Notes: a model not told the origin generated them from the sequence alone. Shown: positions 17,525 to 62,026, counted from the stretch's first letter. The stretch: 64,000 nt of DNA from Patescibacteria group bacterium (GCA_025450075.1 JANWIC010000009.1:38368-102367); one strand, 5' to 3'. Numbers and translations are program-made.

Positions 17525-17533
17525 ATCAATATA

Positions 17534-18418: not shown

Positions 18419-18432
18419 ATAGTAAAGATAAA

Positions 18433-45319: not shown

Positions 45320-47242
45320 ATGTTAAATTTACTTCCTTTTGTAAAATCCTCAGGGATATACTGTTCCTTGACAGCATTACGATATGAAGAAGATTTTGGT
45401 ATCGGGGATATCCGGGGCGGATATAAATTTATTGATTTTCTGGCAAAAGCAGGATTCGGAGTATGGAAAATGCAACCTCTTCAACAAATGGATGGAGCTA
45501 AAGAATCAATTCCATATTATCCGCTTAGTTCATTTGCAATTGATGAAATTTATGCTGATATTTTAAGCTTGGAAGATATCGATTATGCTTCACGTCAGGC
45601 ATTCTTAGATAATCATAGAAGCATTTTACATGGTAATAAGTCTGTACAATATTCCCAGATTAGGCAATTAAAACAAAAAATTCTCCAGGAAGCATTCATG
45701 CTTTTTTATGAGAACCAATATCATAAAGATTCGGAGCGAAAACTTACTTTTGATAATTTCATTGCAAGAAATACAGCTTGGCTTCCTGATTTTGCGCTCT
45801 TTATGTCCATATTTAGCGCATATAACAGTCAAGTAAAAGAATGGCCTGAAGAATTATTACAAAAAGATGCGAATGCAATTAAGGTATATAAGGCAAAATT
45901 TGAGAAAGATATCCTGATGTATATGTATATCCAGTGGATATTACAAGAACAGTTTGTTGCACTGACTCAATATGCCCACAATAAAAACGTTTATCTTATA
46001 ACAGAAATTCCTTTCTATCCGAGTATATTCAGTGCTGATGTTTGGGCACATCCAAATCTATTTGAAGTTGATGTGAACCTTAATCCTCTTGCATATCCAG
46101 GATCTGCACCAGATTTATCCCATCCGTACGGTCAACAATGGAATTACGCATTATATAACTGGGAGAAAATGAAATCTAATGGGTATAGCTGGTGGATAAA
46201 TAGGTTAGCAAAGTTATCATCATATACGGATGGAACAATCATAGACAACTTTGACTGCTTTTTGCAATATTGGAAAATTACAGGAAACCAAGGAAGGGGT
46301 TTTACTGGCCCTGGGGTAGAGCTTCTCAATATGATTGCAAAACAATACAAAGATGAAAAGCTATTTATGCTTTATGCCGATAATTCTTATTTATCAGGAG
46401 GTGTAGGAGAAACTTTACGAAAACAAGTAGGCTTTGAAGCCTATTTCCCATATATTCAAAAATATAAAGATATTTTAAAACATACAATTGATTATCAAGC
46501 TGCTGCACAAATAAGCGTTGCTGATACACCAACTTTAAAAGGGTGGTGGAAGATGCTTCCAGAAGTTGATAAGAAATATGTTTTAGAAGAACTGAATGTA
46601 CCAGTTATGGAAAGTGACCTTCAGGAATTGAAAGATACTGTTAGATGGAGAATCTTGGAAGATATCCTTTATCAACCATTCACTCTCGTGCTTCTACCGA
46701 TTCAAGAGATTCTCGGGCTTGATGTAACTATTCAGGGAAAGTTAACTGAAGATTGGGTATATAGAATGGATATATCCGTCGAAGAACTACTAAAAGATGA
46801 TGATCTTATAAGTAAATTTGATATTTATGCAAGTAAGTTTTCAACAAATAGATATTTTAAAGAATACCGTCTTCGGGCAATTCCTGAAATCTATGATGAA
46901 GTACAAAGGCATTATACCGTTGGTGAGACGATTACGCTTTGGGCTTTAGTTGAAAAGGAACATGAAATAAGTGGGATAACGAATTTGCCTGTGGTGGGAA
47001 ATATGAGCGAGGAAATTAAAGAACTACCTTTCATGAAAGTTGCGGCAGATACCAGAGGGACACTTTTTCGTCTTGAGATTATTGCTCAAAAACCGGGAGA
47101 ATATGTTATTTCGGTTCATGCAGGGAATAATTCTATTAGGAGTCTAGAAAAAAAACTTGAAGTTATTATTGAAGATGATAAGAAAAACTACAAACCATTC
47201 TTTAGTTCCGTGTTTAAACCATTTCCAAAGATAAGTGATTAA
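45320..47242 (+). CDS. malQ: 4-alpha-glucanotransferase (GH77, MalQ-like) with ~150-aa C-terminal extension
   Basis: N-terminal 'SSGIYCSLTALRYEEDFGIGDIRGGYKFIDFLAKAGFGVWKMQPL' matches the GH77 start. Aromatic-rich catalytic core. The C-terminal ~150 aa (VGETITLWALVEKEHEISG...) is an additional beta-rich domain. Confidence 0.7.
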   Translation: MLNLLPFVKSSGIYCSLTALRYEEDFGIGDIRGGYKFIDFLAKAGFGVWKMQPLQQMDGAKESIPYYPLSSFAIDEIYADILSLEDIDYASRQAFLDNHRSILHGNKSVQYSQIRQLKQKILQEAFMLFYENQYHKDSERKLTFDNFIARNTAWLPDFALFMSIFSAYNSQVKEWPEELLQKDANAIKVYKAKFEKDILMYMYIQWILQEQFVALTQYAHNKNVYLITEIPFYPSIFSADVWAHPNLFEVDVNLNPLAYPGSAPDLSHPYGQQWNYALYNWEKMKSNGYSWWINRLAKLSSYTDGTIIDNFDCFLQYWKITGNQGRGFTGPGVELLNMIAKQYKDEKLFMLYADNSYLSGGVGETLRKQVGFEAYFPYIQKYKDILKHTIDYQAAAQISVADTPTLKGWWKMLPEVDKKYVLEELNVPVMESDLQELKDTVRWRILEDILYQPFTLVLLPIQEILGLDVTIQGKLTEDWVYRMDISVEELLKDDDLISKFDIYASKFSTNRYFKEYRLRAIPEIYDEVQRHYTVGETITLWALVEKEHEISGITNLPVVGNMSEEIKELPFMKVAADTRGTLFRLEIIAQKPGEYVISVHAGNNSIRSLEKKLEVIIEDDKKNYKPFFSSVFKPFPKISD

Positions 47243-47243
47243 T

Positions 47244-49271
47244 ATGGCAAATCCTTTGATAAGTATCAAAAATATAACAAAGACGTATAAAGAGAAAAAA
47301 AATCGTATTCAAGCTTTGGATCATTTAACTCTCGATATATACAAAGGAGAGTTCCTTGTTATTATGGGGCCATCGGGAAGTGGAAAATCTACTCTACTAG
47401 ATATTCTTGCATGTATTGATACACCAGATGAAGGAAGTGTCTGGTATAGGGATTTGGAACTTACTAAGGCTTCTTCAAAAATTATTGCTTTATACCGACA
47501 AAGAATTATTGGAATTGTATTCCAAAGAAACTTTAACCTTATTCGAAATTTATCAGTCAACACAAATTTGCTTTTGCCTCGATTATTAAATAAGGTTCAT
47601 GAAAGACAAGCAGATTTTGATTCACTTAACTTATTACTTGATTTGAATCTGAAAGAAATTGAAAAGCGGCCAGCAGAAACACTTTCATTGGGTGAGCAAC
47701 AAAGGGTAGCAATTGCCCGAGTTCTTATGAATAACCCGGAAATTATTATTGCTGATGAACCAACTGGAAATTTGGATAGTGCAAATGGAGCAAGGCTAAT
47801 GGAAATATTAAAAAAGCTCAATGAAGAGAATGGTAAAACTATTATTATCGTTACCCACAATCCTGAATTTGCCACACTTGCAAGCAGGGTAATATATCTC
47901 AAAGACGGAAAAATTGAAAGAACTGAAGTTAGAATAGATAAATCTACAAATGAAGATGATACAAGTGAAAATATTTTAAAAACTGAGAAAGCAAAACCTT
48001 TTAGATTGTCTACAGCCATATGGTTAGCTTCTCAGTTATTCATGAAAAACAAATACCGCTTTATTATAACTCTTTCAAGTATTATCCTTGCATTAGCAAT
48101 TCTAGTTGTACAGATAGATTTAGTTAATCTGTCACCTGAAACTATTTCAGCAAGTAAAGATGCAACTGGATACAATAATGAGATAATTGGTTCTCAACAA
48201 ATTGTTATTGCGGCACAAGGAAAGGAATACTTTGATAATCCTTGGCTTCTAAACCCATACCTACCGATCTCTCCAGGAAGACTTGTAACAAAGGGAGGAA
48301 TAGCAAACATTAGTTCGATACCGCATGTAAAGGATGCCTATCCGGTTATTCCACTTGAAGTGAAAACACCAAATATCTCTTTTTTTGCAGAAACCGGATC
48401 ACCGGTAGCCACTTCCAATCTCCCATCAACATATTTTGTATCTGGTGCGTATTTTAAAACAGACACGCAACATGCAATCATCCTTAATGAGGAGATAGCT
48501 CGTGTTATAGCAGGGGGAAGTGATGTCACTTCCCTTATTGGAACGACAATTCCTATCCAAGTGAGTATTCGTGAGATTCCATTATCGCAAAATGTCTCCA
48601 TTCATGAGAATGCAACAATAGTTGGAATTCAAAATTATGCTGAGCCTTGGATTGTTGCCCAGGTTCCTTATGCCTTTGGAGATTTAATTCAAAACAATAT
48701 TCTGAAAGGATACCCCATAACAAAAATTGATGTTGATGGCGCATCTCATCTTTCCCAGGTTAAAGATGCTTTGGGTAATATGGGATATGCTGCATTTAGC
48801 CAAACAGACGAATTGCATATTCTTGATATTATCATTAATCTTATTGCTATTGTGTTATTAAGCATCATTCTCTTAAACTTTATTGCCATTTGCATCAATA
48901 TCCTAAATGCAATTGTTATTCTTGTGGTGAAAAAATCTCGTATGCTTATGGCGCTATTATCTATTGGGGTCAGGAAAAATGACATAAAAAAATACATTCT
49001 CCTTCAAGGAATAATTATTGGAACCATTGCAGGCATAGGAGGATGGGTACTGGGATATGTATTTTCTGATATTCTTGCAAATGATATTACGGTTACAATA
49101 CTTGGCGGATCTAAAACCGGTGCAGGAAATCCTTTATTATTTGTTTCAAGCCCCGGTGAAATGGTTATTTTAATTTTAATATCGATTGTTTTGGCAATAC
49201 TAGAAGTTACATATTATATGTATAAGATTCCGTCGAAGAAATCTGTGTTGAAAATATTACGAAGAGAATAA
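47244..49271 (+). CDS. ABC transporter, fused ATPase-FtsX permease (MacB-like)
   Basis: N-terminal ATPase 'GPSGSGKSTLLDILACID', signature 'LSLGEQQRVAIARVL', Walker B 'IIIADEPTGNLD'. C-terminal FtsX-type 4-TM permease with a large extracytoplasmic domain between TM1 and TM2. ATG 47244 is directly after the malQ stop. Confidence 0.85.
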   Translation: MANPLISIKNITKTYKEKKNRIQALDHLTLDIYKGEFLVIMGPSGSGKSTLLDILACIDTPDEGSVWYRDLELTKASSKIIALYRQRIIGIVFQRNFNLIRNLSVNTNLLLPRLLNKVHERQADFDSLNLLLDLNLKEIEKRPAETLSLGEQQRVAIARVLMNNPEIIIADEPTGNLDSANGARLMEILKKLNEENGKTIIIVTHNPEFATLASRVIYLKDGKIERTEVRIDKSTNEDDTSENILKTEKAKPFRLSTAIWLASQLFMKNKYRFIITLSSIILALAILVVQIDLVNLSPETISASKDATGYNNEIIGSQQIVIAAQGKEYFDNPWLLNPYLPISPGRLVTKGGIANISSIPHVKDAYPVIPLEVKTPNISFFAETGSPVATSNLPSTYFVSGAYFKTDTQHAIILNEEIARVIAGGSDVTSLIGTTIPIQVSIREIPLSQNVSIHENATIVGIQNYAEPWIVAQVPYAFGDLIQNNILKGYPITKIDVDGASHLSQVKDALGNMGYAAFSQTDELHILDIIINLIAIVLLSIILLNFIAICINILNAIVILVVKKSRMLMALLSIGVRKNDIKKYILLQGIIIGTIAGIGGWVLGYVFSDILANDITVTILGGSKTGAGNPLLFVSSPGEMVILILISIVLAILEVTYYMYKIPSKKSVLKILRRE

Positions 49272-49272
49272 T

Positions 49273-51234
49273 ATGGGAAAAATTATTGAATTAAAAGAAA
49301 TTACGAAAAGATATCACTTAAAGGAAGAAGTGGTGGTTGCACTTGATGCGCTATCAGTAGAAATCTATGATAATGAATTCATTGTTATTATGGGGCCTTC
49401 TGGAAGCGGCAAATCAACTCTTGTTAATATCCTTGCTGGAATGGATCATCAGGTAAAAGGTTCTTTGTTATATAAAGGTATTGATATTTATCATGGAAGC
49501 AAAAAAATACTTTGGTTATATAGGCAAAAAGTAGTAGGACTTGTCTTTCAAACTCTCAACCTCATACCTGGGACAACTGTTGGATATAATATAAAGTTGC
49601 CAAGATATATTTCATCAATCAAAGAAAGCAGTATCAATTTTGATAAGGATTTGTTGCTTAATGATTTAGGTATTAAACTTAAAAAGTCATCCATTGTGGA
49701 TAATCTCTCACTTGGTGAGCAGCAGCGTGTAGCTATAGCCAGGGCTTTAATGAATGATCCAGATATCTTAATAGCTGATGAACCAACTGGAAACCTGGAT
49801 AGCGCGAATGGGACTAGGCTTATGGAAATTCTTATTCATTTGCACAAAGAAAGTAAAAAAACAATTGTTATTGCAACCCATAACCCAGAGATAGCGCTTG
49901 CAGCTGATAGGGTAATATATCTAAAAGACGGGAGAATTGATCGAATAGAGGTTCATACAGACAAAAGTTCTCAAGAATTGGCGGCTGGTGGAATGCATAC
50001 TATACAAACAGGTCGATTCGACATGTTGAAAAAAATAGCTCTTGCATTTTTCAACCTAAGGAAGGATTTTATGAAATATTCATTGATGACGTTCGCATTC
50101 GGTGTTTTTATATCCATTCTCGTATCAATTAGCTTGTTTAGTTATGTTGTAATAAATAACTTATTGCTTGCATTTGCTCCCCATTCATTTTCACAGACAT
50201 ATGAGCTTACACAGCCATTGTTACAAAAGCTTCCTGATATTCCTATTACTCAACATACAATTGACACACTTAATCGTTTACCTGGAGTAGGAAGTGCTTA
50301 TCCTATTACTCATTTTTATGGAGATATGGTTTACAACCATACAAGCAAGACTCTTTATGCTGCAACCGGCTCATCTGTAACAAAAGCAAGACAATCGGAA
50401 GAAACCATTTCTTCTGGAAGATATTTTTTGAAAGATGACGAACATAGCATTATCTTAACCCCATCTTCTCTTCATGTATTGGGTATCACAAATGGAGGTG
50501 ACATAATTGGCAAGAAAATTGAATTGGATGTATCCCTGAATCCAGATACAGCAAAAACTCAACAAATACAAGTTTATGTTACAGTTGTGGGAATTTTAAA
50601 AAATGACTTAATGCTTTTTCCAAATCTTCTTCCTTCTAATTTCTTCTCAATTGCTGGATTTAAAGGAACTGAACCATTTGATTCTGCATATATATATGTC
50701 CAGGATCCAAGTTATATCGGAAATGTAGGGAGTAAAATACAAAATATGAGATATCAATCAATTCTGCTATCAGATATGACCAAAGGAAGCTCTGACGGTG
50801 CAGCTATTACTCAAAGCTGGTTGTTCATTATTGGATTTGTTGTTCTTACAACAGTGGTTTTCAGTATGATCAATTTCTTAACTGTAATTTTTAATGAAAG
50901 AATTCGAGAGGTAGGTATATTGAAAGCAATTGGTGCAAGTGCAAAAGATATTATATTTCTTTATGCTTGGGAAGGTGCATTTATAGGAATTGGGATAGGG
51001 TTTATTGCTGTTCTTTTGTGCATTCAAGAAATTTCAATATTAAATAGCTTTTTACAAACCCAGTTCCTTCAAAATGCTACAGTTACATCTACTATTGGAA
51101 TTACATATGGTGGAAGTGAGAAGGCCATAACTTTTATTGTAAGTATTTTAGTCGGAATCTTAACAATTGCTTATCCAGCGATTTGGGGTGCACGGATAAA
51201 TATTATGAAGGCACTTGGAAGGGGAATATCATAA
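49273..51234 (+). CDS. ABC transporter, fused ATPase-FtsX permease (MacB-like), tandem paralog
   Basis: 'GPSGSGKSTLVNILAGMD', 'LSLGEQQRVAIARAL', 'ILIADEPTGNLD', and a C-terminal FtsX permease. 1-nt gap from the upstream paralog. Confidence 0.85.
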   Translation: MGKIIELKEITKRYHLKEEVVVALDALSVEIYDNEFIVIMGPSGSGKSTLVNILAGMDHQVKGSLLYKGIDIYHGSKKILWLYRQKVVGLVFQTLNLIPGTTVGYNIKLPRYISSIKESSINFDKDLLLNDLGIKLKKSSIVDNLSLGEQQRVAIARALMNDPDILIADEPTGNLDSANGTRLMEILIHLHKESKKTIVIATHNPEIALAADRVIYLKDGRIDRIEVHTDKSSQELAAGGMHTIQTGRFDMLKKIALAFFNLRKDFMKYSLMTFAFGVFISILVSISLFSYVVINNLLLAFAPHSFSQTYELTQPLLQKLPDIPITQHTIDTLNRLPGVGSAYPITHFYGDMVYNHTSKTLYAATGSSVTKARQSEETISSGRYFLKDDEHSIILTPSSLHVLGITNGGDIIGKKIELDVSLNPDTAKTQQIQVYVTVVGILKNDLMLFPNLLPSNFFSIAGFKGTEPFDSAYIYVQDPSYIGNVGSKIQNMRYQSILLSDMTKGSSDGAAITQSWLFIIGFVVLTTVVFSMINFLTVIFNERIREVGILKAIGASAKDIIFLYAWEGAFIGIGIGFIAVLLCIQEISILNSFLQTQFLQNATVTSTIGITYGGSEKAITFIVSILVGILTIAYPAIWGARINIMKALGRGIS

Positions 51235-51282
51235 TTGACACATAATTCGCTATTCATTACAATAACATAAACTGCCAAATTC

Positions 51283-53010
51283 ATGAAAAAATCAATTGTT
51301 AAGAAAATATTAAAAGATTGTGAATATTGTGTAAAAGAAATAGGAAGAGATGTGATTAGCGCCAACATACTGCTATATGTCCTTATACTCGATCCTGAAG
51401 TGCATGGAGAGCTATTATTAAACAACACTGATATGCATACTCTCCATTTTCTTCTTAACCCATACCATGTCAGGAAAAATACTCCTCTTAAAATATCAGT
51501 CAGTGAAGAAGTAAAATCTATTCTAAATGGAAGCGAAAATGATGCTAGCGCTTTAGATATCTTTAAAGGTGCAATCAAACAAAAATATATTAAGGATATT
51601 TTTACGAAAGCAGGTTATGTTCCCGGAAATGATCAAAATACCATTTTATCAAAATATACAAAGAAAATAGACGATGGGGTAGCTCATCAGGAAGATATAG
51701 ATAAGTATGAAAAGATAACAAATCATTTAGGAAACAGGAATGTTATGATAATGGGAGCAATGGGATCCGGCAGATTTGAATTTATAAAATCATATGCAAA
51801 GTATAGTAGTGCGAATTTTTCCATCTATTATTTTGATTTATTTAAATGCTTAAAACTTGAAGAAGATCGTCTATTTGGCATTGTCAACGGTATATTTGAT
51901 GAATTAAGAGATGATTATCTCTATATCCCCAATTTTTTGAAAGTAATGATTTGGGTTCGTTCGCTAAAAATGCATAATATATATATACTTCTTGAAGAAC
52001 TTGCCAATAGGGGAAAAATAATTACAAAGGTAAATAAAAATACATTTGATTCAAAAGAATTTCAATTAAGTAAACAATTTAATTTCTTTTCAATTAATAT
52101 TCCGCCAATAACGATAGATCAGTTGTATGGCATTCTCAATTCATATGCTTTTGCATATGAAAAATTTTATCATATTAATATTCCAAAAGAAGAAATTAAA
52201 AGAATAATAAAGGAAGCAAATTTTAAAGATACTGCGCTTGCTCAACCAGGTAAATCATTAAAAAGGCTCATGCATTTTGCAATGATCACTTATGGCCAAG
52301 ATGAGACAATTTTACAGAAACCTAAAGATAAGGGGAGTTTTAGTGAAAACCTATCACTTGAACAACATCTAAATAAATCAATAATTGGACAAGCGAGAGT
52401 CATTGAGGAAATATCATATGAAATTGGTAAAATTAATTTTCTTGAAGGCGGTATTGTTAAATCCTTCCTTTTTCAAGGAGAAATAGGGTGTGGAAAATTG
52501 AAAACTGCAACAGAGATGAGCAAATTCCTTTTTGGAGAAGATTCTCTTCGATATATAGATATGGGAGTTTACAGCCAATTTCCATTCAAGATGAAAATAT
52601 ATGAAAAGTTAGATCGATTAATCCAGACAATGTATGGAGGTATCATATTTATAGATAATTTTGAAGAATTAGATACAACACAAATAGATATCTTTTCATA
52701 TATTAAAATGAAGGTAAAAGAAGCAAATTTTGAAGGTCTTATGGCCCCAATTATTATCATTGCTTCGAGTAGGAAACCTGTTACAGAGATACCAAACTAT
52801 GCATATATAATTGAACATTTTGATAAAATAGTGTATTTTAATAAGCTGACGATTCGGGATCTTGAAAAAGTAGCTGAAATTCAATTAATGAAAATAAAAG
52901 GAATAATTCAGACGGATAAGGTATTTAGTACGTTCGTTATAAGCGCTCAAGCAAATCCCCAGCTCAATGCGTTGGGAATCAAGAAGTTGATTACATCCAT
53001 GTGTTTGTAA
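51283..53010 (+). CDS. Clp/Hsp100-like protein with degenerate Walker motifs in both AAA+ modules (predicted pseudo-ATPase)
   Basis: Clp_N-like 'ANILLYVLILDPEVHGELLL'. D1 'VMIMGAMGSGRFEFI' (K to R, T to F). D2 'FLFQGEIGCGKLKTATEMSKFLFGEDSLRYIDMGVY' (GK followed by L, not T/S). Walker B positions read 'IFIDNFEE' instead of DE. ClpA D2-like 'SIIGQARVIEEISYEI' is present. Confidence 0.5.
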   Translation: MKKSIVKKILKDCEYCVKEIGRDVISANILLYVLILDPEVHGELLLNNTDMHTLHFLLNPYHVRKNTPLKISVSEEVKSILNGSENDASALDIFKGAIKQKYIKDIFTKAGYVPGNDQNTILSKYTKKIDDGVAHQEDIDKYEKITNHLGNRNVMIMGAMGSGRFEFIKSYAKYSSANFSIYYFDLFKCLKLEEDRLFGIVNGIFDELRDDYLYIPNFLKVMIWVRSLKMHNIYILLEELANRGKIITKVNKNTFDSKEFQLSKQFNFFSINIPPITIDQLYGILNSYAFAYEKFYHINIPKEEIKRIIKEANFKDTALAQPGKSLKRLMHFAMITYGQDETILQKPKDKGSFSENLSLEQHLNKSIIGQARVIEEISYEIGKINFLEGGIVKSFLFQGEIGCGKLKTATEMSKFLFGEDSLRYIDMGVYSQFPFKMKIYEKLDRLIQTMYGGIIFIDNFEELDTTQIDIFSYIKMKVKEANFEGLMAPIIIIASSRKPVTEIPNYAYIIEHFDKIVYFNKLTIRDLEKVAEIQLMKIKGIIQTDKVFSTFVISAQANPQLNALGIKKLITSMCL

Positions 53011-53072: not shown

Positions 53073-55046
53073 ATGAAGCAGCATACTGTTCCACAAAATA
53101 TAATGAGTGTGGAGTTTAAGATAATAGGGGACTTGAGTATAAGGCAATTTATTTATATTAGTTTGTCTGGTGGTCTTGCCTTTATCTTTTGGCTTACATA
53201 CTTGCCGGGAATTATAAAATATACCCTTATTTTCATTTCGGTAGTATTAGGATTATTAGTAACGTTCGCTAAGATAAATGAACGGCCATTTGACCAATGG
53301 ATTACTAATTTTATTACAGCTGTCATGCTGCCTACTCAGCGGATTTGGGCAAAACATCATGAATTGCCGTATTATTTAGAAGAACAACCTGCTCCAACTT
53401 CAAAAGTTGAAGATCAGAAAAAAGAAAAGGGGTATCAGAAAGTGGTTTCATATCTTAATTCACGAAACCTCCCTACTGATGAAATGTATAAATCGAACAC
53501 TGTACTTGATATTGAAGAAATAAAAATGCTTACAAATATAGGAAAATTAATGAATCAAGCGATGACTCCTGACCCTGATGCAATTTTGCAAGCAGCGGCA
53601 GCGCCAGTTCAGGTTCCAAATCCAGCACAAGCGGTAATTCCTCCACAGCAAAGCAATGCAAATATACCCATTGAACCCCTTGTACAACCTACAACTCCAA
53701 TTCAACCTAAAGTAGAAATACCGGTTCAGCAGGTGGCACAACCACAGCATGTAGTGATTCCTCCACCAGTTTCAGTTCCTCCTACACCACCTGGGATGAC
53801 ATCTATTCCTGATCCAATCGTCCAGCCGGCTGTAAATGTTTCTTCAGTGCAATCACCATATCCACAGGTACAGACTCCTGCACCCCAGCAAATTGACCCA
53901 CCCATTGTTATTCCGGAAGCAATCCCTGATAAGGAAAAGCCGGTTCAAGATGAAATCATTACGATAGAGCCAAACACGGTGGTAAAATTGGATGATTTAA
54001 AAAATCTAAAATCCAGCGTATTAGATTCCCTAGACAATGAATTAAAAAGCTTGGATACAAGAACAGCAGTAATTGAACCTAAAACGGAAACTCAAAAACA
54101 ACAGACTGAGCTTGAAGCATCACTTGCAGATTTAATTCCTAATTTTGGAGGTCCTCTGCCACCACTTCCACCAAAACAAACTCCTGAAACACCCCCAGCA
54201 CCTCCAGTGATAGTAGTACCTGATACAGCATCAATACCTGAACCGAAAATGGAAATACCGGAAGTTGTCATGAAGGAACCAGATGTTACTAGTGAGCCGA
54301 TTAAAACCTCAGTCATTGAACAGCCTTTCGAACAGATACCAGAAGAAAGAGTTCCTGAATATACTCAAACAATTGATGAGCCAGTAGTTGTGATCAATGA
54401 ATCAGATATTGTCCATCCTGAAGATGTTGTTACATCTATCCAGGAAACTGAAGCCCCTCCAGTACAGCCGGTAACAGTAGATACTGTTGTAGCAGCAGAG
54501 CCGCAAGTTATTCAAACTGAAATAGTAGCCCCTGATGTGGAAAATCGTCCTCAAGCAATGACTTCTGATGAATTAGCAATTTTACAAGAAGAAAATCGAA
54601 GATTACGGGAAGAATTATTAAAAGCCAAAACCGAGGCATATCCAATTACTGATCAGCAACCTGAACAGGTAGAAGTAAGAGATGATAACAAAATATTAGG
54701 ACATATGCCTGATTTTGTTAATTTCCCAAATGTTTTAAGCGGAGTAGTTGTTGATTCAAACGATAAAACTGTTGAGGATGTAGTAATAATCATTAAGAAT
54801 AAATCAAAACAGATTATGAGGGCAATGAAAACAAATATTCTCGGACAATTCTATTCTCGAAATCCTCTTCCTAATGGAAACTATGATATTGAAGCAAATA
54901 AAGAAGGATATGTTTTTGAGAACATGGGGATCAATTTGACCGGAGTCGTCATGAAGCCTATGATTATAAGGACGAAGAAATTTTCAAGTATCCAAAGTGG
55001 AACCGAATTTAATTTAATGAATAACTCAAACGATGGCAGCAAATAG
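53073..55046 (+). CDS. PrgI/VirB3-like membrane protein with long Pro-rich extracellular extension and C-terminal CarboxypepD_reg-like beta domain
   Basis: N-terminal 'VPQNIMSVEFKIIGDLSIRQFIYISLSGGLAFIFWLTYL' matches the PrgI-family pattern (two TM). Middle ~300 aa is P/Q/V/E-rich low complexity plus a coiled coil 'LAILQEENRRLREELLKAK'. C-terminal 'LSGVVVDSNDKTVEDVVIII...NGNYDIEANKEGYVFE' is carboxypeptidase-regulatory-domain-like. Confidence 0.5.
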   Translation: MKQHTVPQNIMSVEFKIIGDLSIRQFIYISLSGGLAFIFWLTYLPGIIKYTLIFISVVLGLLVTFAKINERPFDQWITNFITAVMLPTQRIWAKHHELPYYLEEQPAPTSKVEDQKKEKGYQKVVSYLNSRNLPTDEMYKSNTVLDIEEIKMLTNIGKLMNQAMTPDPDAILQAAAAPVQVPNPAQAVIPPQQSNANIPIEPLVQPTTPIQPKVEIPVQQVAQPQHVVIPPPVSVPPTPPGMTSIPDPIVQPAVNVSSVQSPYPQVQTPAPQQIDPPIVIPEAIPDKEKPVQDEIITIEPNTVVKLDDLKNLKSSVLDSLDNELKSLDTRTAVIEPKTETQKQQTELEASLADLIPNFGGPLPPLPPKQTPETPPAPPVIVVPDTASIPEPKMEIPEVVMKEPDVTSEPIKTSVIEQPFEQIPEERVPEYTQTIDEPVVVINESDIVHPEDVVTSIQETEAPPVQPVTVDTVVAAEPQVIQTEIVAPDVENRPQAMTSDELAILQEENRRLREELLKAKTEAYPITDQQPEQVEVRDDNKILGHMPDFVNFPNVLSGVVVDSNDKTVEDVVIIIKNKSKQIMRAMKTNILGQFYSRNPLPNGNYDIEANKEGYVFENMGINLTGVVMKPMIIRTKKFSSIQSGTEFNLMNNSNDGSK

Positions 55047-55776
55047 GATTATGTCAACAACCCAAGATCATCTCGATATAGAAGATGTGAGGGATGATAT
55101 GATGGTTTTAAAAGATGGAAGAGTATGTATTATTCTTGAAACAAGTGCAGTGAATTTCAGCTTACTTTCAGAAATAGAACAGGATGCGAAGATAGCCGCA
55201 TTTGCAGGATTACTCAATTCAATCAATTACAACCTCCAAATAGTTGTACACACAGAAAGTGTTGATGTCTCAAAATATATTGTAACCCTTGAAAATTACA
55301 AGAATAAACAAACGAGTGAGAAGATCAAATACCAAATTTCAAACTATATTGAGTTTATAAAAAACCTTATTAAAAAGAATGATGTGCTTGATAAACGATT
55401 CTATGTTGTAATACCATATATACCTTATGGAGTAAAAAGGACAAGCCCTTTGAGACAAGTATTTGGTAAACCAAATAGAATTCTTGATTTAGGGAGGCTT
55501 CTTGAAACTGCAAAACTTGACCTCTATCCAAAAAAAGATGGAATCGTTAAACTTTTAATTAGAATGGGAATTAAAACGAGGCAACTAACTACAGAAGAAA
55601 TTATTAAGCTTTTTTATAAGCTCTATAATTCAGAAGGGAATACTTTACCAAAATCACGATTTACAGAAGATGATGTTCTTGCTGCAGTAGTTGGAACACC
55701 TAAAAATTACGATACCGTACAGGAAGATATTACTATCCCATATACAAATAATGAACCCAACGACATTAAACAATAA
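55033..55776 (+). CDS. T4SS-associated protein resembling the N-terminal domain of VirB4/TrbE, encoded separately
   Basis: 'LDIEDVRDDMMVLKDGRVCIILETSAVNFSLLSEIEQDAKIAAFAGLLNSINYNLQIVV' resembles the VirB4 N-terminal region. Its stop (55776) overlaps the VirB4 ATG (55751) by 26 nt. It is paralogous to ORF 59403-59858. Confidence 0.45.
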   Translation: MAANRIMSTTQDHLDIEDVRDDMMVLKDGRVCIILETSAVNFSLLSEIEQDAKIAAFAGLLNSINYNLQIVVHTESVDVSKYIVTLENYKNKQTSEKIKYQISNYIEFIKNLIKKNDVLDKRFYVVIPYIPYGVKRTSPLRQVFGKPNRILDLGRLLETAKLDLYPKKDGIVKLLIRMGIKTRQLTTEEIIKLFYKLYNSEGNTLPKSRFTEDDVLAAVVGTPKNYDTVQEDITIPYTNNEPNDIKQ

Positions 55777-57769
55777 TATAGCACCTCCAACGGTTGATCC
55801 GTTTGGAAAACCTTTACAACCGAAGGAAAATCAAACCCAACCAAAACAGTTGATTCCTATTCAGGAAATAAAGAGTATGGTAACAAGTTTACTTGGAATG
55901 CTACCTTTTTTTAAAACAACCGAGGAACCAATTGATCCTGTATACCAAAAGCGAAAAGAAAACATGCAACGCTTTTCCGATGGAATGGTAGATATCCGTG
56001 ATATAATAGCTCCTTCAGCAATAGAGATTGATTTTGATTATGTAAAGATAAATAAGAAATTTTATAAAACTTACTTTGCTGCACTTTTTCCTCGTTTTGT
56101 ATCATCCAATTGGTTGTCACCTTTGATTAATTTCGAAAAGACACTAGATATCTCAATGTTTTACTATCCTGTAGATTCAAGGGTAGTTATGCAAAAGCTT
56201 CGAAGAAAAATTGCTGAAATGGAAGCAACATTAAATACATTGGCTGAACAAGGTAAAGTGCTTGACCCAAATGTAAAAGTTGCATTGGAAGATGCAAAGA
56301 ATTTACAGGAGCAATTGGCAAAAGGAAGTGAAAAATTTTTCCATTATGCTGTATATATAACGATTCAAGCAGATACTATTGTTGAATTAAATGATATCGG
56401 AAAAAACCTTGAAACAATACTAGGCGCTAGTGGTTTGGTTGTAAAGTCATCATATTTGCAGCAAGAATTTGGTTTCCAATCTACACTTCCTGAGAATAAC
56501 GATAAATTGCAAGTAGTCCGGAATATGGATACTACATCTATAGCCACTACTTTTCCATTTGTCTCATCTGACTTAACATCTGATACTGGTATATTATATG
56601 GAATCAATAAATCTAATAAAAGTTTAGTAATTTATGATAGGTTCACAAGTGAAAACTATAATACAGTCATATTTGCACGGTCTGGTGCAGGGAAAAGTTA
56701 CCTGGCAAAACTTGAAGCGCTTCGATCATTGATGTTGGGGGCACAGGTAATTATCATTGATCCTGAGCGCGAATATGAAAAACTCTGTCAGGCATTAGGT
56801 GGAGCTTACATTTCTTTCTCCCAAGATGGGGCAAGCAAAATTAATCCATTTGACCTATCTGGTATACGGGAACCAGGAGAGGATGAGTTACGTTTTAAAA
56901 TCCTTTCTCTTCACGGGTTATTTAGGATTATGCTTGGGGAAAATGGTGAAAGCTTATCATCAATTGAAAACGCAATTTTGGATAAAGCATTGATTGAGAC
57001 GTACAGACAAAAAGGTATTACTGTAGATGCAAGTACTCAAACAAAAGAACCTCCTCTTTTAGAAGACTTGTTTAAAGTTTTACAAGGAATGGAGGAACCT
57101 GAAGCACAAGGTATTGCAAAGAGATTAGAGAAATTTATACGTGGTAGTGCAACTGGGATCTTTGACCAGCGTTCTAATGTTGAGATCAATAATCCATTCA
57201 CTGTTTTTTCGATTCGTGACTTATCTGATGAATTACGTGCTCCGGCAATGTATCTCATGCTTGACTATATTTGGACTCGAGTGAAGAAAGAAAAAGTAAA
57301 AAGAATCTTAATGGTCGATGAAGCATGGATTTTGATGAAGTATCCTGATAGTGCACAATTTATGAATGCTATTGCAAAGCGTGCACGTAAATATTATCTT
57401 GGTTTGACCACGATTACACAGGATGTTGAAGATTTTCTTTCAACAGATTATGGGAAAGCAATAGTGAATAATGCATCAATGCAGATTCTTCTTAAGCAAA
57501 GTCCTAGTGCAATAGATAATATTCAACGTGTTTTCTTCCTATCTGAAGGAGAAAAGGAACTATTGTTGAATGCGGCACAAGGCGAAGGATTATTCTTTGC
57601 AGGGGCAAATCATGTAGCAATTCAAATTATTGCAAGTCAATATGAACATTCTCTCATTACAACTAACCCAACTGAGACACAAACAGAACCAACCATTCAA
57701 AATCAAAATTTAAGACAGGTTGTGCAGGAACAAGTAAAAGCGGTATCACTTGAAGCTCAAGTTGAATAG
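55751..57769 (+). CDS. VirB4/TraE/PrgJ-like type IV secretion ATPase
   Basis: 'DIRDIIAPSAIEIDFDYVKINKKFYKTYFAALFPRFVSSNWLSPLIN', Walker A 'VIFARSGAGKSYLAKLEALRSLMLGAQVIIIDPEREYEKL', Walker B 'ILMVDEAWILM', 'GLTTITQDVEDF'. ATG at 55751; the track start 55691 overlaps the upstream gene further. Confidence 0.85.
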   Translation: MNPTTLNNNIAPPTVDPFGKPLQPKENQTQPKQLIPIQEIKSMVTSLLGMLPFFKTTEEPIDPVYQKRKENMQRFSDGMVDIRDIIAPSAIEIDFDYVKINKKFYKTYFAALFPRFVSSNWLSPLINFEKTLDISMFYYPVDSRVVMQKLRRKIAEMEATLNTLAEQGKVLDPNVKVALEDAKNLQEQLAKGSEKFFHYAVYITIQADTIVELNDIGKNLETILGASGLVVKSSYLQQEFGFQSTLPENNDKLQVVRNMDTTSIATTFPFVSSDLTSDTGILYGINKSNKSLVIYDRFTSENYNTVIFARSGAGKSYLAKLEALRSLMLGAQVIIIDPEREYEKLCQALGGAYISFSQDGASKINPFDLSGIREPGEDELRFKILSLHGLFRIMLGENGESLSSIENAILDKALIETYRQKGITVDASTQTKEPPLLEDLFKVLQGMEEPEAQGIAKRLEKFIRGSATGIFDQRSNVEINNPFTVFSIRDLSDELRAPAMYLMLDYIWTRVKKEKVKRILMVDEAWILMKYPDSAQFMNAIAKRARKYYLGLTTITQDVEDFLSTDYGKAIVNNASMQILLKQSPSAIDNIQRVFFLSEGEKELLLNAAQGEGLFFAGANHVAIQIIASQYEHSLITTNPTETQTEPTIQNQNLRQVVQEQVKAVSLEAQVE

Positions 57770-57796
57770 GAGTATAAGATTTGTGAGGTGATATAA

Positions 57797-58078
57797 TTGA
57801 TAAAATTTATCCTAGATTTACTTCCCCCTCGTGCTGATGTTTACCAAATTCCCGAACTTTCAAACACAATAAATAACATTACTGATACGATTGCTTGGAT
57901 TGTATTGAGTCTACTCATCTTATTTATCATTAGTTTTGGAGTTCAATTCATTTTGGCAGCGGATAGTCCACAAGAACGTGTTAAGCTAAAAAACAAAATC
58001 ATTTGGGCTCTTGTTGGTCTATTCATTATCTTAACAGCAAAACCATTAAGTATATGGATTCAATCAATTGTAAAATAA
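57797..58078 (+). CDS. VirB2/TrbC-pilin-like small two-TM protein
   Basis: 93 aa. TTG start with a GAGGTG RBS 6 nt upstream. Two hydrophobic helices 'IAWIVLSLLILFIISFGVQFIL' and 'IIWALVGLFIILTA'. It is located between the VirB4-like and VirB6-like genes. Confidence 0.35.
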   Translation: MIKFILDLLPPRADVYQIPELSNTINNITDTIAWIVLSLLILFIISFGVQFILAADSPQERVKLKNKIIWALVGLFIILTAKPLSIWIQSIVK

Positions 58079-59205
58079 AGAGTATATGGTATAGATTACA
58101 CAGTCAGCTTGTTGATCTATTTCCTTTTGTTCTAGTCTTTATCCTTATTTTTGCATTTTCTATCAACACCTTGACCAGTACATATATAGGAAATACAAAT
58201 GCGAATACTTCATTCATTGTATCAAAGAACCAGATAGGTGATGGGCCATCAGAAGAATGTTTCACTAATTTTTCATTAAATATATTCAGCACGGGTATTT
58301 CTTTTTTAGTTTGTCATCTTTCATTTTTCTTTGATGATTATGTTGCATTTACACATAACCTTTTCTCTCCATCAGACACTTTATATTCATCTTACCAAAA
58401 TGAATTATATTTACCGATGAAAAGACTTGCATTTATATTATTACCGCTCTCATTTTTGATAGCTGTAGCAATAAATATCCTTCGAGCAATGATTGATTTT
58501 GGAAGTGATATTCATGTCTTACGGTATATCCAAGAACTGTTATTCTCTCTAATCATACTTTTGATTCTTCCAGCTATTGGAAGGTTTAGTATTGATTTAA
58601 ATAACGGCATCTCCAGCTATATTATATCTACAATAACAGGTGGATATACTTCTCAAAATGGTCTCGCATCGTTGATTTCACAAAATATCAATATCAATGA
58701 AATTGCACAGCAACAATTTATACCAGCAGTAGCATCCAATATCTTATGGATATCATTTTTTATAGCTATGCTATTTCTTGTGATCTTTTTTATTGTTCGT
58801 TTTATAGTTATATGGCTTGTGTTTTTAGTACTTCCATTACTGATTTCTTTAGAATTTATTCCTTATATGAAAGGAATCAAAGAGACAATTATTACAAAAC
58901 TTTGTCAGTTTATCATTGTTCAACCAGTTTTTCTCTTAGGATTAGGTTTCTTTTTTATTATCATGAAAGAGCAAATGGACAGTATCGCAAAATTTATTCT
59001 TGCGATTTGTTCGCTTATTACCTTAGGATTTATTCCATCATATATATCAAGTGTCTCGGGAGGAAAGTTAATGTCCTTATCAACAAATGATATGAAGCAT
59101 TTCTTTCATAGTGTTGGACAGCGGATTGATATTGCAATTGGCTGGATAGAAGAATCTCTTTCAAAACCTTATGAGCTTCCTTTAGAAAAACCATCCAAGA
59201 AATGA
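58054..59205 (+). CDS. VirB6/TrbL-like polytopic membrane protein
   Basis: ~380 aa with an N-terminal extracytoplasmic region, then 5-6 TM (e.g. 'ILWISFFIAMLFLVIFFIVRFIVIWLVFLVLPLLI'). The assignment rests on size, topology and T4SS context only. Start taken at ATG 58054 (MDSIN...); the track start is 58003. Confidence 0.35.
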   Translation: MDSINCKIKSIWYRLHSQLVDLFPFVLVFILIFAFSINTLTSTYIGNTNANTSFIVSKNQIGDGPSEECFTNFSLNIFSTGISFLVCHLSFFFDDYVAFTHNLFSPSDTLYSSYQNELYLPMKRLAFILLPLSFLIAVAINILRAMIDFGSDIHVLRYIQELLFSLIILLILPAIGRFSIDLNNGISSYIISTITGGYTSQNGLASLISQNININEIAQQQFIPAVASNILWISFFIAMLFLVIFFIVRFIVIWLVFLVLPLLISLEFIPYMKGIKETIITKLCQFIIVQPVFLLGLGFFFIIMKEQMDSIAKFILAICSLITLGFIPSYISSVSGGKLMSLSTNDMKHFFHSVGQRIDIAIGWIEESLSKPYELPLEKPSKK

Positions 59206-59206
59206 T

Positions 59207-59413
59207 ATGAAAATTGCTTACTACATCTTAATATTATCTATTGTAGCTATCTGGACAATATTACCTTTACAACTATATATGAAAGTACTTTTAACAATAA
59301 TGGTTATTGGGATTCATATTTGTTTTCAGGTAAAAGTAAAGGATAAGCATCTCTATACATGGATTTTGATTATATTACTATATCTGATGAGGCGAAAAAG
59401 ATATGTCAAATAG
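59207..59413 (+). CDS. VirB3-like small two-TM protein (second module)
   Basis: 68 aa with two hydrophobic helices. It sits in the same relative position as the PrgI-like gene of the first module, immediately upstream of the second N-domain gene. Confidence 0.3.
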   Translation: MKIAYYILILSIVAIWTILPLQLYMKVLLTIMVIGIHICFQVKVKDKHLYTWILIILLYLMRRKRYVK

Positions 59414-59858
59414 GATTGGAGATATACTTAAAATTGATCATATTGAGGGGTCATACATTTTAATGAAAGATAAAACAAAAAAAATTGTTGTTGAAATTTC
59501 TTCTGTTTACGGTGATAAGAATAGTATTTTTCAACCAATCCTATCTTCAATTGATACGGATATTATAGTTTTATATAGGAAATCGTTACTTGTTGAAGAT
59601 GATTACAAAGATTATTTCCATGAAATGATAGAGCGGAATATACAAGCAAAACTTCTTCCGGAAGTACTTGCATATATTAAAGAATTGAAGGTACAACTTG
59701 AAAAAATGTCGCATTATAGTGTGCTTTTTATAATTACTATGAATAATAGAATATCCACTATAGATAGTATTCATACCATGTTTTCTCATCTCAATGTTGA
59801 ATATGAAATCTATGAAAATTATAAATTACAGCAATTTTTGAACACTCTTTTCTTATGA
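59403..59858 (+). CDS. VirB4 N-domain-like protein (paralog of 55033-55776)
   Basis: 'LKIDHIEGSYILMKDKTKKIVVEISSVYGD' aligns with 'LDIEDVRDDMMVLKDGRVCIILETSAVNFS' of ORF 55033. It overlaps the downstream VirB4-like ATG by 4 nt. Confidence 0.4.
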   Translation: MSNRIGDILKIDHIEGSYILMKDKTKKIVVEISSVYGDKNSIFQPILSSIDTDIIVLYRKSLLVEDDYKDYFHEMIERNIQAKLLPEVLAYIKELKVQLEKMSHYSVLFIITMNNRISTIDSIHTMFSHLNVEYEIYENYKLQQFLNTLFL

Positions 59859-61423
59859 AAACACTACTTTTAAATATTTTAGATGATATATCAGCTTTAA
59901 TACCATCTTTTGAAAATATTAAAATAGATTTCAGAAAGAGACAGAAAAAAGATTTCATAATTAAGAAGAATGTTAATATACCTGAACATATATTTACTCT
60001 TAAAGAATTTTACCAATATATTTCCCTAAATGAGCAAAACTATCAATTCATCGATATTCATGTAGACAATGACTCCAAGAATCTATTATCGGCATTACTA
60101 AAAGAATACGAACAAATATATCTTGCTATGCATATTAACAAGCTAAAAAAAGAAGAAGTACATAATTCATTAAAGAAAAAACTGGCAAAACTATATGAAG
60201 AAAAAATATCAACTTCTCAAAAAGGAATATTATCTACTGGATTTCTTGATCATGAGATTCAGGATATAAAGAAAAAAATAGATGAATATGTTATACAAGC
60301 AGATCCGTATATGGTTACCTTAAAGATGAGTATTAAATACGAAGCAGATATTCAAAAGTTGAAAATGCTTGCAACTATTTTTAATGTCAGCTTTTACCCA
60401 TTATATTTTAAACAATTGGTTTCATTACAGAGTTTTTTCTTATCTCCCGTATTAGATAATGAATACTCGCTTTTAAGTAATTTAGCTGTTGTAGATCCTT
60501 TTCCAGCATTTACTCCTGTTCAATGTAAAGGTATATTTATTGGACATGAAATGAATACTCAATCACCAATTTTTGAAGATTTCTTTGGATTTGAAAATTT
60601 TAATTCAGTAATTATGGCAAAATCAGGAGCTGGGAAAAGCCTTCTTGCTTCTATGCTTATGAAAAGGCTCCTTTTTGAAGGTATTGCGATTGTTGTTTTT
60701 GATCCTGAAAAAGAATATGAATCATTTTGTAATGCACTTCATGGCAAAAACTATTATGAAGAAGATATGGTCTTTATAGATGCCTATATGCAAAATAGCG
60801 AAAATATTTCATATTTTCTAAATTTACTTCCATTAATCTTTGAGAGTAGAGAAGACGGAGAAGAAATGTTTAGCTTTTTTCATGATTGTAGGACATATAG
60901 TGAAATTAAAGAAAAGATTGAGATGTTATCTGTCAAGAAGAAAAACAAATTACTTAGATATTTCCAGTCAGATAAGAAAAGGAGCTTGAAGGATTTTCAA
61001 ATTATTAATTTCGTCATTACATCTGATAAGAGTAAAATTGATTTATATAAGATTATTATGTACTGCATGAATAGAAATATTGGGAAAACAATATTATTTA
61101 TCGATGAAGCACATAAAGTAATGGATGATGAATATATAGCTCAGATAGTTAGACAGGTATCTAAGAGAGGGAGAAAACATAATCTTGGGATATGTGTCAT
61201 CTCACAAGATATCATTGATTTTGTACAAAATAAATGGAGTAAAGCAGTGATTTCAAATGCTACTTTCACTTTTCTTTTAAAGCAAGAATTAATCAATTTA
61301 CCGCTAATTAACAAAATCTTTGGAGTAGAAGATTATGAGGATTTCCTTTTGCATGCCCGTGTTGGAGAAGGCATATTTATGAGAAATGGTGAAATTCAAA
61401 AAGTCATATTTGACAAGATTTAA
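59855..61423 (+). CDS. VirB4-like ATPase, shorter paralog
   Basis: Walker A 'VIMAKSGAGKSLLASMLMKRLLFEGIAIVVFDPEKEYESF', Walker B 'ILFIDEAHKVM', 'GICVISQDIIDF'. The preceding 'FNVSFYPLYFKQLVS...VVDPFPAFTP' region aligns with the first VirB4 ('FGFQSTLPENN...TFPFVS'). Confidence 0.75.
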   Translation: MKTLLLNILDDISALIPSFENIKIDFRKRQKKDFIIKKNVNIPEHIFTLKEFYQYISLNEQNYQFIDIHVDNDSKNLLSALLKEYEQIYLAMHINKLKKEEVHNSLKKKLAKLYEEKISTSQKGILSTGFLDHEIQDIKKKIDEYVIQADPYMVTLKMSIKYEADIQKLKMLATIFNVSFYPLYFKQLVSLQSFFLSPVLDNEYSLLSNLAVVDPFPAFTPVQCKGIFIGHEMNTQSPIFEDFFGFENFNSVIMAKSGAGKSLLASMLMKRLLFEGIAIVVFDPEKEYESFCNALHGKNYYEEDMVFIDAYMQNSENISYFLNLLPLIFESREDGEEMFSFFHDCRTYSEIKEKIEMLSVKKKNKLLRYFQSDKKRSLKDFQIINFVITSDKSKIDLYKIIMYCMNRNIGKTILFIDEAHKVMDDEYIAQIVRQVSKRGRKHNLGICVISQDIIDFVQNKWSKAVISNATFTFLLKQELINLPLINKIFGVEDYEDFLLHARVGEGIFMRNGEIQKVIFDKI

Positions 61424-61480
61424 TGAATTTCTGAGCATCACTTTCATTATGATATAATACACTTAATTAAGATAAAAAAA

Positions 61481-61975
61481 ATGAATCGAAAAACTTCACA
61501 TGATAGTGAAACACCGGCAGTTGGTCAACAGGTTTTTACTGCATGTGCCTTTATCCATAGGAAGGTGGGCGGTAAAGAAAAAGTATTGTTAGCCAAAAGG
61601 GCAGATTCAAAGAAATTCTTGCCAGGTGTTTATGAGCTTCCGGGAGGGCATATAAACTTTGGTGAAGATATGAAAGAAGGTCTAAGACGTGAAATTGAAG
61701 AAGAATTGGAGGTTAAGATATCAATTGGAGACCCTTTCTTCGTTTTTACAGGAATGAATCCTATCAAAGGATCAAACTCTATAGAGGTCACTATGTTTCT
61801 CAACACTCCTGATGAAATAAAAATTCACCCTGAAGACCATTCAGCAATAATATGGGTTTCTGAAGAAGAGATACCTAGTATTTACACACATACAAAAGGC
61901 TCGGATGATATTGAAGTAGAAGCGATACGAAAAGGTTTTTCCTTTCTTAAAGGCATTCCTTGTCAATTTGTCTGA
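61481..61975 (+). CDS. NUDIX hydrolase
   Basis: Nudix box 'GGHINFGEDMKEGLRREIEEELEV' (GX5EX7REUXEEXGU). Confidence 0.8.
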   Translation: MNRKTSHDSETPAVGQQVFTACAFIHRKVGGKEKVLLAKRADSKKFLPGVYELPGGHINFGEDMKEGLRREIEEELEVKISIGDPFFVFTGMNPIKGSNSIEVTMFLNTPDEIKIHPEDHSAIIWVSEEEIPSIYTHTKGSDDIEVEAIRKGFSFLKGIPCQFV

Positions 61976-62026
61976 TGCATGAAACATCAATTTACATTGA
62001 TAGGAATTTAGAAGTATAATCACACT

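Follow-up and report, generated by a model that had tools for sequence, protein, structure and literature searches.

A chromosomal, relaxase-less patescibacterial type IV secretion locus with a second, probably functional and fast-diverging VirB3-like/TrsD/VirB4 set

Most Patescibacteria possess a chromosomal type IV secretion system (T4SS), which is monophyletic and derived from the mating-pair formation class MPF-FATA (Quinonero-Coronel et al. 2025, PMC12102498). According to the same study, TrsD is the most abundant T4SS component of Patescibacteria, alongside PrgI, VirB2-like pilins, and VirB6; relaxases are almost never found; and TrsD of pGO1 is homologous to the N-terminus of VirB4. The count was 2,474 VirB4 in 2,417 assemblies, about one per genome, and paralogues of the kind reported here were not discussed (PMC12102498). 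Southlakia epibionticum requires its T4SS genes in order to grow as an epibiont (Wang et al. 2023, as cited in PMC12857230). Here, we describe an array of eight T4SS genes at positions 53073-61423 of a 64,000-nt stretch of DNA from a Patescibacteria group bacterium (GCA_025450075.1 JANWIC010000009.1:38368-102367), hereafter the window, in which a set of PrgI/VirB3, TrsD, and VirB4 genes is followed by pilin and VirB6 genes and by a second, divergent set of the same three genes.

The eight open reading frames (ORFs), whose positions had all been given correctly in an earlier note on this DNA, are co-directional on the + strand and encode, in order, a long PrgI/VirB3, TrsD, VirB4, a VirB2-like pilin, a VirB6-like protein, a VirB3'-like protein, a short TrsD', and a short VirB4'. 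Adjacent ORFs overlap by up to 26 nt or are separated by up to 27 nt, an operon-like packing, and a promoter and terminator scan, whose counts were at chance level, revealed no convincing terminator within the array. We refer to the first three genes as Part A and to the last five, a recurrent five-gene block, as Part B. No component of a monoderm-type, pilus-forming T4SS is missing from the locus, which has two split VirB4 motors, both complete. With a probability of roughly 0.72, we interpret it as a chromosomal, relaxase-less, MPF-FATA-derived patescibacterial T4SS locus, in which the second set is an old, fast-diverging but functional paralogue of the first.

The locus shares with the described patescibacterial T4SS a VirB4 that groups with those of the phylum, prgI/virB3 and trsD adjacent to and preceding virB4, a VirB2-like pilin and a VirB6 gene nearby, and a chromosomal position with neither a relaxase nor a type IV coupling protein (T4CP). 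It differs by the addition of the VirB3'/TrsD'/VirB4' set joined to the pilin and VirB6 genes, and by its PrgI (657 aa), which is fused to a Pro-rich linker and a β-sandwich. The staphylococcal trsC-trsD-trsE systems of pGO1 and pSK41 (MPF-FATA) likewise encode a VirB3-like protein, a separate TrsD, and a VirB4, but these are conjugation systems carried on plasmids; they include a relaxase and a T4CP, have only one motor, and lack a VirB2-like pilin. A VirB4 N-domain split off as a separate gene had been taken for an undescribed architecture; it corresponds to TrsD of pGO1 and has been reported for Patescibacteria (PMC12102498).

Duplicated VirB4 genes, which had also been considered undescribed, have a precedent in the rvh system of Rickettsiales. 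There, two VirB4 paralogues, RvhB4-I and RvhB4-II, are both strictly retained throughout the lineage, one being conserved and the other evolving markedly faster (PMC4676284, PMC2653234). The analogy with our locus lies in the evolutionary pattern only, that is, paired VirB4 proteins with unequal rates. The rvh system is of the diderm P-type (MPF-T), and no VirB8, VirB9, or VirB10 of such a scaffold was found in the window locus. Moreover, RvhB4-II is full-length, has lost ATPase active-site residues, and is encoded far from the other loci, whereas VirB4' of the window has kept its catalytic motifs, is shortened, and has VirB3-like and TrsD-like partners of its own. The new element is a rare, conserved, and fast-evolving VirB3'/TrsD'/VirB4' set tied to pilin and VirB6 genes in a sub-lineage of Dojkabacteria; the remainder of the locus, including the split N-domain, is already described.

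The first gene of Part A (53073-55046, + strand) encodes the long PrgI/VirB3 (657 aa), which matched Pfam PrgI (PF12666) with 37.5 bits (cut-off 27). Residues 1-90 form the PrgI part, with two transmembrane (TM) segments (residues 26-69), and the C-terminus is a CarboxypepD_reg-like β-sandwich (PF13620, 4.4e-7); the two are connected by a linker of ~440 aa, which is rich in Pro, Val, Glu, and Gln and contains 15% proline. The same fusion was found in three related loci (L001, L004, and L085). The linker-coding region (53373-54700) displays imperfect 37-nt repeats spaced 120-135 nt apart (53610, 53730, and 53865). The two TM segments predict a cytoplasmic location for the extension, which is odd for a proline-rich stalk bearing an Ig-like domain.

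The second gene, trsD (55033-55776, + strand), overlaps the end of prgI by 14 nt and encodes a soluble homologue of the VirB4 N-domain. This protein matched NCBIfam TrsD/TraD at 1.2e-9 (38 bits, under the curated cut-off of 200), N-terminal positions 110-233 of the mycoplasma-type VirB4 model VirB4_plasma at 3.6e-9, and positions 20-70 of PRK13853 at 0.067, and its orthologue in L001 carries the TraC-like domain PF26593. In nearly every complete patescibacterial locus that we fetched, trsD precedes virB4.

The third gene (55751-57769, + strand) encodes the first motor, a canonical patescibacterial VirB4 with the Walker A motif GAGKS and the Walker B motif DEAW. It matched the CD1110 family (NF045971) with 382 bits (cut-off 325) and Pfam P-loop_TraG at 2.3e-28. 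A scan of GTDB genomes with this protein showed 43-71% identity to VirB4 of patescibacterial metagenome-assembled genomes (MAGs): the nearest were those of Candidatus Dojkabacteria (61-71%), followed by WWE3, Paceibacteria, and Saccharimonadia (~43-56%), with Clostridia at ~30-35%. In a neighbour-joining tree, the first VirB4 also grouped with Dojkabacteria. Because its closest VirB4 relatives are Dojkabacteria MAGs, the window genome is suggested to be Dojkabacteria-like.

Part B begins with the gene of a VirB2-like T4SS pilin (57797-58078, + strand), which scored 53 bits against PF18895 T4SS_pilin (cut-off 26.6) and 5e-9 against the NCBIfam Mbov_0395 pilin-like family, and which has two TM segments (residues 27-57 and 68-88). 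The following gene (58054-59205, + strand) encodes a polytopic membrane protein with about seven hydrophobic segments, which we identified as VirB6-like by two routes. An identical database protein (P0181) has a precomputed match to PF19590 TrbL_3, a family that was also found on the orthologues of L003 (weakly) and L089, and an HMM (hidden Markov model) built for the family matched the ORFs at the VirB6 position of L017 (2e-11) and L018 (1e-9).

The next protein, of 68 aa (59207-59413, + strand), consists of a hydrophobic hairpin, a K-x-K...W motif, a short hydrophobic helix, and a basic tail, and it is kept at this position in six other loci (L001, L003, L004, L084, L085, and L087). Direct Pfam scanning gave no PrgI match, and one member of the family matched TcpE at 0.045. 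Its family HMM nevertheless matched the ORFs at the PrgI position of two Saccharimonadia-type loci, L042 (2e-5) and L043 (3e-4), of which the former is itself a Pfam PrgI (2.5e-6). Both topology and gene position fit VirB3/PrgI, and we designate the protein VirB3'-like. None of the 68-aa, 151-aa, and VirB6-like proteins had a significant match when scanned directly against Pfam and NCBIfam. The earlier assignment of individual ORFs to T4SS families was thus confirmed by Pfam scores over the cut-offs for those at 53073 and 57797; those at 58054 and 59207 had no significant direct match, and their family HMMs were positive. Together with VirB4, these results bear out the proposal that the array is a T4SS locus.

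The 151-aa protein encoded at 59403-59858 (+ strand) showed no BLASTP match to TrsD. Profile comparison by hhalign, in contrast, aligned it with the TrsD family at 92.9% probability (E 3.6e-7); the alignment spans 146 collinear columns and contains a single deletion of ~30 residues. We regard the protein as a shortened TrsD paralogue, TrsD'. The TrsD' family HMM recovered the TrsD of the window (2e-11) and that of all patescibacterial loci (1e-6 to 1e-13), and 173-aa relatives of TrsD' carry PF26593 TraC-like. An AlphaFold2 model of TrsD' reached a pLDDT (predicted local distance difference test) of 68.9 and its top Foldseek matches in the PDB were VirB4 chains of R388 (TrwK), which were not significant (E 0.09), while a single-sequence model of the 151-aa protein (pLDDT 39.6) was unusable. 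Comparison of the TrsD family profile with PDB sequences gave no meaningful match.

The second motor, VirB4' (522 aa; 59855-61423, + strand), starts within an ATGA overlap with the TrsD' stop codon. It matched the first VirB4 by BLASTP at 2e-17 and, among NCBIfam models, VirB4_plasma (1.8e-29) and CD1110 (1.8e-26), both under the curated cut-offs. Its scores for Pfam P-loop_TraG and AAA_10 exceeded the respective cut-offs. The profile of its family matched the VirB4 C-terminal domain structure 4AG5 at 4.6e-31, and the family keeps the Walker A motif GAGKS, the Walker B motif DEAH, and the RGRK and SQD motifs. Furthermore, a less diverged orthologue (L085_2) covered positions 187-732 of the 752-position CD1110 model (1.5e-79). 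Judged by sequence, VirB4' is a divergent VirB4-like paralogue that lies outside all the curated equivalogs. A HerA/FtsK-type identity was ruled out for the ATPases, as the best family and structure matches were all to VirB4, in agreement with the earlier note. That note had also described the two sets as homologous and identically ordered, and this is supported for the ATPases by BLASTP, for the TrsD proteins by hhalign, and, indirectly, for the small protein by its family HMM.

To describe the distribution of the second set, we searched several protein and genome collections. A word-indexed search of 5.8 billion proteins returned only three relatives of VirB4', with 40-45% identity. HMMER searching of 1.84 billion cluster representatives yielded four strong members and two intermediates (192 and 191 bits), after which generic VirB4 followed (≤169 bits), and a two-HMM classification of 1.84 billion proteins delimited a rare VirB4' clade of seven 50%-identity clusters. 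An exact look-up of the window VirB4' sequence found no identical record. A metagenome scan gave no new VirB4' among the matches listed, which comprised L091 and L093, resembling integrative and conjugative elements (ICEs), and distant VirB4; a GTDB genome scan with the VirB4' alignment, using narrow patterns, gave no confirmed match.

In the genomes where they occur, the genes of the small protein, TrsD', and VirB4' always lie downstream of the pilin and VirB6-like genes, forming the five-gene block. Their three ORFs are intact in the window and in L001/L002, L003, L004, L084, L085/L086, and L087/L088. In L089, the pilin, VirB6, TrsD', and VirB4' are present with no match to the small protein, and the contig of P0003 covers only the last portion of the block. 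The position of the block relative to Part A varies. In the window, L001/L002, and L004, it comes straight after prgI-trsD-virB4, and the same probably holds for L003, the contig of which begins inside virB4; two genes are inserted between them in L085/L086; and in L084, L087/L088, and L089 the block lies among unrelated neighbours, away from the first triplet. Conservation of the second set, in at least seven genomes, is therefore established, while its adjacency to the first triplet applies to only some of them. The inserted genes of L085 (5169-8467) encode a 101-aa DUF5663 protein and a protein of 996 aa without a family match.

In other Dojkabacteria loci (L005-L008, L011, and L036), prgI-trsD-virB4 occurs without a pilin or VirB6 gene at a distance of up to 10 kb. 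Clusters of other classes are ordered pilin, VirB6, VirB3, TrsD, VirB4, as in L042/L043 and, with less complete matches, L017/L018. The order of the five-gene block is the same as this canonical order, that is, the order of a complete minimal patescibacterial T4SS cluster.

The two sets had previously been read as a tandemly duplicated module. The view that the VirB3/N-domain/VirB4 module was duplicated in situ, giving a novel two-copy T4SS architecture, would account for the same gene order in both sets, for the homology of all three components, and for the adjacency of the sets in the window, L001, and L004. The paralogy was indeed real, but several observations did not fit a recent event, and we consider this view quite improbable. 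No DNA repeat was found between the two sets beyond remnants of ~40 nt at the DPE-EY and Walker B codons, and the two ATPases are ~22% identical over trimmed columns. VirB4' is no more similar to the neighbouring VirB4 than to the VirB4 of other classes, and it fell outside the canonical patescibacterial VirB4 group in the neighbour-joining tree, a method that is prone to long-branch artefacts. Walker B reads DEAH in every VirB4', as opposed to DEAW in 33 of the 33 canonical patescibacterial VirB4 examined. In addition, the second set travels as a block with the pilin and VirB6 genes, also away from the first triplet, and the split N-domain TrsD was already described. Because of the missing DNA repeats, the tree position, the difference between DEAH and DEAW, and the separation of the block from Part A, a recent tandem duplication does not explain the second set. 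DEAH was also considered as a unique synapomorphy of VirB4' and rejected: it is common in other VirB4, including Firmicute and ICE-type proteins, and separates VirB4' only from the canonical patescibacterial DEAW clade. The VirB3'/TrsD'/VirB4' set would rather be an old paralogue, which stems either from an early duplication or from separate acquisition from a mobile element.

The second of these origins leads to a tentative alternative, which we regard as possible although unlikely, namely that Part B is a domesticated remnant of a separately acquired MPF-FATA mobile element (an ICE or plasmid that has lost its integrase, relaxase, and coupling protein). The genome would then carry two T4SSs of different origin, which may assemble independently. 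DEAH, shared with many Firmicute or ICE-type VirB4, is consistent with such an origin, as are the differing chromosomal sites of the block across genomes and the position of VirB4' outside the canonical patescibacterial group. A compact order similar to that of the block was also found in an ICE-like metagenomic locus, L090 (1-18602; JGI 3300027815), and in its relatives L091 and L093. L090 encodes two integrases, ParA, and AbiEii. Its TrbC-like pilin and its VirB6-like protein of 587 aa are followed by an ORF of 269 aa with a borderline TrsD-like match (5e-3) and by a compact DEAH VirB4 of 526 aa, and the locus also encodes an M23 peptidase and a T4CP-like ATPase of 795 aa. The order of pilin, VirB6-like protein, weakly TrsD-like ORF, and compact DEAH VirB4 resembles that of the window block; the block differs by lacking the integrases, ParA, M23 peptidase, and T4CP-like ATPase and by its conserved chromosomal synteny. 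L090 may serve as a model of where the five-gene block came from.

Against a separate acquisition, no mobility genes were seen beside the block in any genome, and the RNase H/Wzz/holA flank is syntenic across the window, L001, L003, and the contig of P0003. In L005-L008, Part A lacks its own pilin and VirB6, which suggests that the two parts depend on one another, and fast evolution alone could account for the position of VirB4' in the tree. Since this alternative concerns the origin and independence of Part B, it is partly compatible with our preferred interpretation of the second set as an old functional paralogue. The pilin and VirB6 are encoded in Part B alone, and the motor conserved throughout the phylum is found solely in Part A; for this reason, we favour one interdependent apparatus over two independent machines.

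We compared the divergence of both parts between the window and L001, the nearest relative. Identity was 79% for VirB4 and 70% for TrsD, and reached 68% and 63% for the flanking housekeeping proteins Wzz and RNase H, respectively. It was only 52% for the pilin, 43% for VirB4', 41% for VirB6, 32% for the small protein, and 29% for TrsD'. Part B is thus changing much more quickly than either the first triplet or the two housekeeping genes beside it.

Such values raise the question of whether selection on the second set has been relaxed, leaving a duplicate that is decaying and no longer functional, and several results, including some from the identification of the individual proteins, weigh against the interpretation that we prefer. 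The genes of the small protein, TrsD', and VirB4' have a G+C content of 0.27-0.28 versus 0.32-0.36. VirB4' is ~150 residues shorter than VirB4 and scores under every curated VirB4 cut-off (102 bits against 590 for VirB4_plasma and 92.6 against 325 for CD1110). Lengths of VirB4' shrink progressively from 543 to 522, 479, and 415 aa, the last being the most eroded copy (L004), which is without the C-terminal GEG motif. All these features are in keeping with relaxed constraint. The assignment of the small protein to VirB3' is indirect, through transitive HMM matches and topology, and a direct hhalign comparison of its family with PrgI was weak (20% probability). For the VirB6-like protein, a direct local Pfam scan gave TrbL at E 0.64 only, which is not significant, and the separation of VirB4' in the neighbour-joining tree is open to the long-branch artefacts mentioned above.

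Decay is, nonetheless, very unlikely in our assessment. The three genes are intact, overlapping, and translationally coupled in at least seven genomes, in which housekeeping proteins are just 46-68% identical where compared, and the Walker A, Walker B, RK, and [ST]QD motifs are invariant in all copies. Overall, undamaged ORFs together with ATPase motifs were seen in at least eight genomes. To our knowledge, pseudogenes do not outlast such divergence in streamlined genomes of less than 1 Mb. Given the intact overlapping genes, the invariant motifs, and the alignment of the L085 copy to the CD1110 model, the second set is unlikely to be a pseudogene; it has apparently been kept functional, with a motor that is still active.

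The genomic setting was examined for conjugation genes. The remainder of the window consists of chromosomal housekeeping genes, which encode FtsK, an FtsA/PilM-like protein, RodZ, MetRS, sigma-70, LepA, a ClpB-like protein, UvrD, tRNA-Pro, PheS/PheT, MalQ, RNase H, and Wzz. No T4CP, relaxase, VirB11, or integrase was found among the 40 window proteins scanned, which corroborates the reported absence of VirD4, relaxase, and VirB11, and the sole FtsK-like protein (5479-7710) possesses alpha and gamma domains and is a true FtsK. The G+C content was 0.29-0.31 across 58000-62000, compared to about 0.34-0.36 around this region.

The window stops only 2.6 kb downstream of VirB4', and T4CP genes are often distant from virB4 (PMC12102498), so that an ordinary conjugative element with its relaxase and coupling protein just beyond the window was also considered. 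We give this next to no probability: the upstream 53 kb consist of housekeeping genes, among which there is no integrase, relaxase, T4CP, or VirB11, and most patescibacterial T4SS loci are without a relaxase (PMC12102498). Downstream, the flanks of the syntenic relatives L001, L003, and L004 contain only housekeeping genes over 10 kb (RNase H, Wzz, holA, YceG, RuvX, and similar), with no relaxase or T4CP, and the flanks of L085 are also housekeeping. The non-conjugative role put forward in the earlier note is in line with this context, with no conjugation genes nearby; it agrees with PMC12102498, where it was already published.

Based on the established functions of VirB3, VirB4, and VirB6, we propose how the products of the locus might work together. 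The whole array would be expressed as a single, tightly packed unit. Part A (the long prgI/virB3, trsD, and virB4) would supply the slowly evolving motor common to the phylum, and Part B the VirB2-like pilin, the VirB6-like protein, the minimal VirB3'-like anchor, TrsD', and VirB4'. Each VirB3-like anchor may recruit its TrsD-type N-domain and ATPase to the membrane beside the VirB6 channel, where ATP hydrolysis would drive either the extraction of pilin from the membrane, leading to a VirB2-type pilus, or the movement of substrates. The purpose would be contact with a host bacterium and not conjugation. Within one assembled machine, labour could be divided such that the conserved motor is the core engine, while the fast motor co-evolves with the pilin and VirB6 and has a specialised role.

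A stronger version of this division, which is rather unlikely in our view, is that the two motors are non-redundant within one machine and that the second set has assumed a role given elsewhere to a separate ATPase. The set might recruit substrates, replacing the missing VirD4-type coupling protein, or occupy a second, non-equivalent VirB4 position, as in the inner-membrane complex of R388. If this were true, the rapid divergence of the second set, the pilin, and VirB6 would represent adaptation to different host bacteria, and the ancient duplication from VirB4 to coupling protein would have been re-run independently in an obligate epibiont.

In the sole cultivated model, life as an epibiont requires the patescibacterial T4SS. 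A lineage with two complete split-VirB4 motors constitutes a natural experiment in dividing the tasks of such a machine, because one motor is conserved and the other is diverging quickly together with the pilin and channel genes. In addition, counts of VirB4 per genome based on a single HMM can miss divergent paralogues.

Immediately upstream of the locus, we found a gene (51283-53010, + strand) for a degenerate, ClpB/ClpV-like AAA protein of 575 aa. It carries a Walker-A-like GEIGCGK motif and matched the NCBIfam ClpB D2 region (5.8e-7) and TssH (1.8e-3), both weakly. Orthologues lie directly 5' of prgI in L001 (57% identity) and L004 (34%), and none was found upstream of prgI in L085. Membership of this protein in the T4SS is uncertain; by analogy with ClpV in the type VI secretion system, it might be a T4SS-associated, unfoldase-like partner. 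Promoter-like matches in the region were at chance level overall, the best site being located at 51235-51263 (11/12 matches).

Other features were observed in the window and in the metagenomic loci. Just upstream of the T4SS locus, two adjacent paralogues at 47235-49271 and 49273-51234 (+ strand) each encode a fused ABC ATPase/FtsX-type permease, MacB-like, of 678 and 653 aa, respectively; they have no conserved counterparts at the corresponding place in L001. At 16643-20557 (- strand), three ATP-grasp genes, of which two are RimK-like and the third is an ATPgrasp_ST with a tail resembling Zn_protease, adjoin the gene of a 7TM_transglut membrane protein, and the cluster looks like a peptide-ligation or modification cassette. 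A 680-aa ORF without a Pfam or NCBIfam match is located at 3434-5476 (+ strand), between the FtsA/PilM-like gene and ftsK. Finally, L092, from a very AT-rich organism (G+C 0.26), shows a further unusual arrangement, with a DEAH-type VirB4 at the contig end and the gene of a 383-aa PrgI-N-containing protein ~7 kb downstream.

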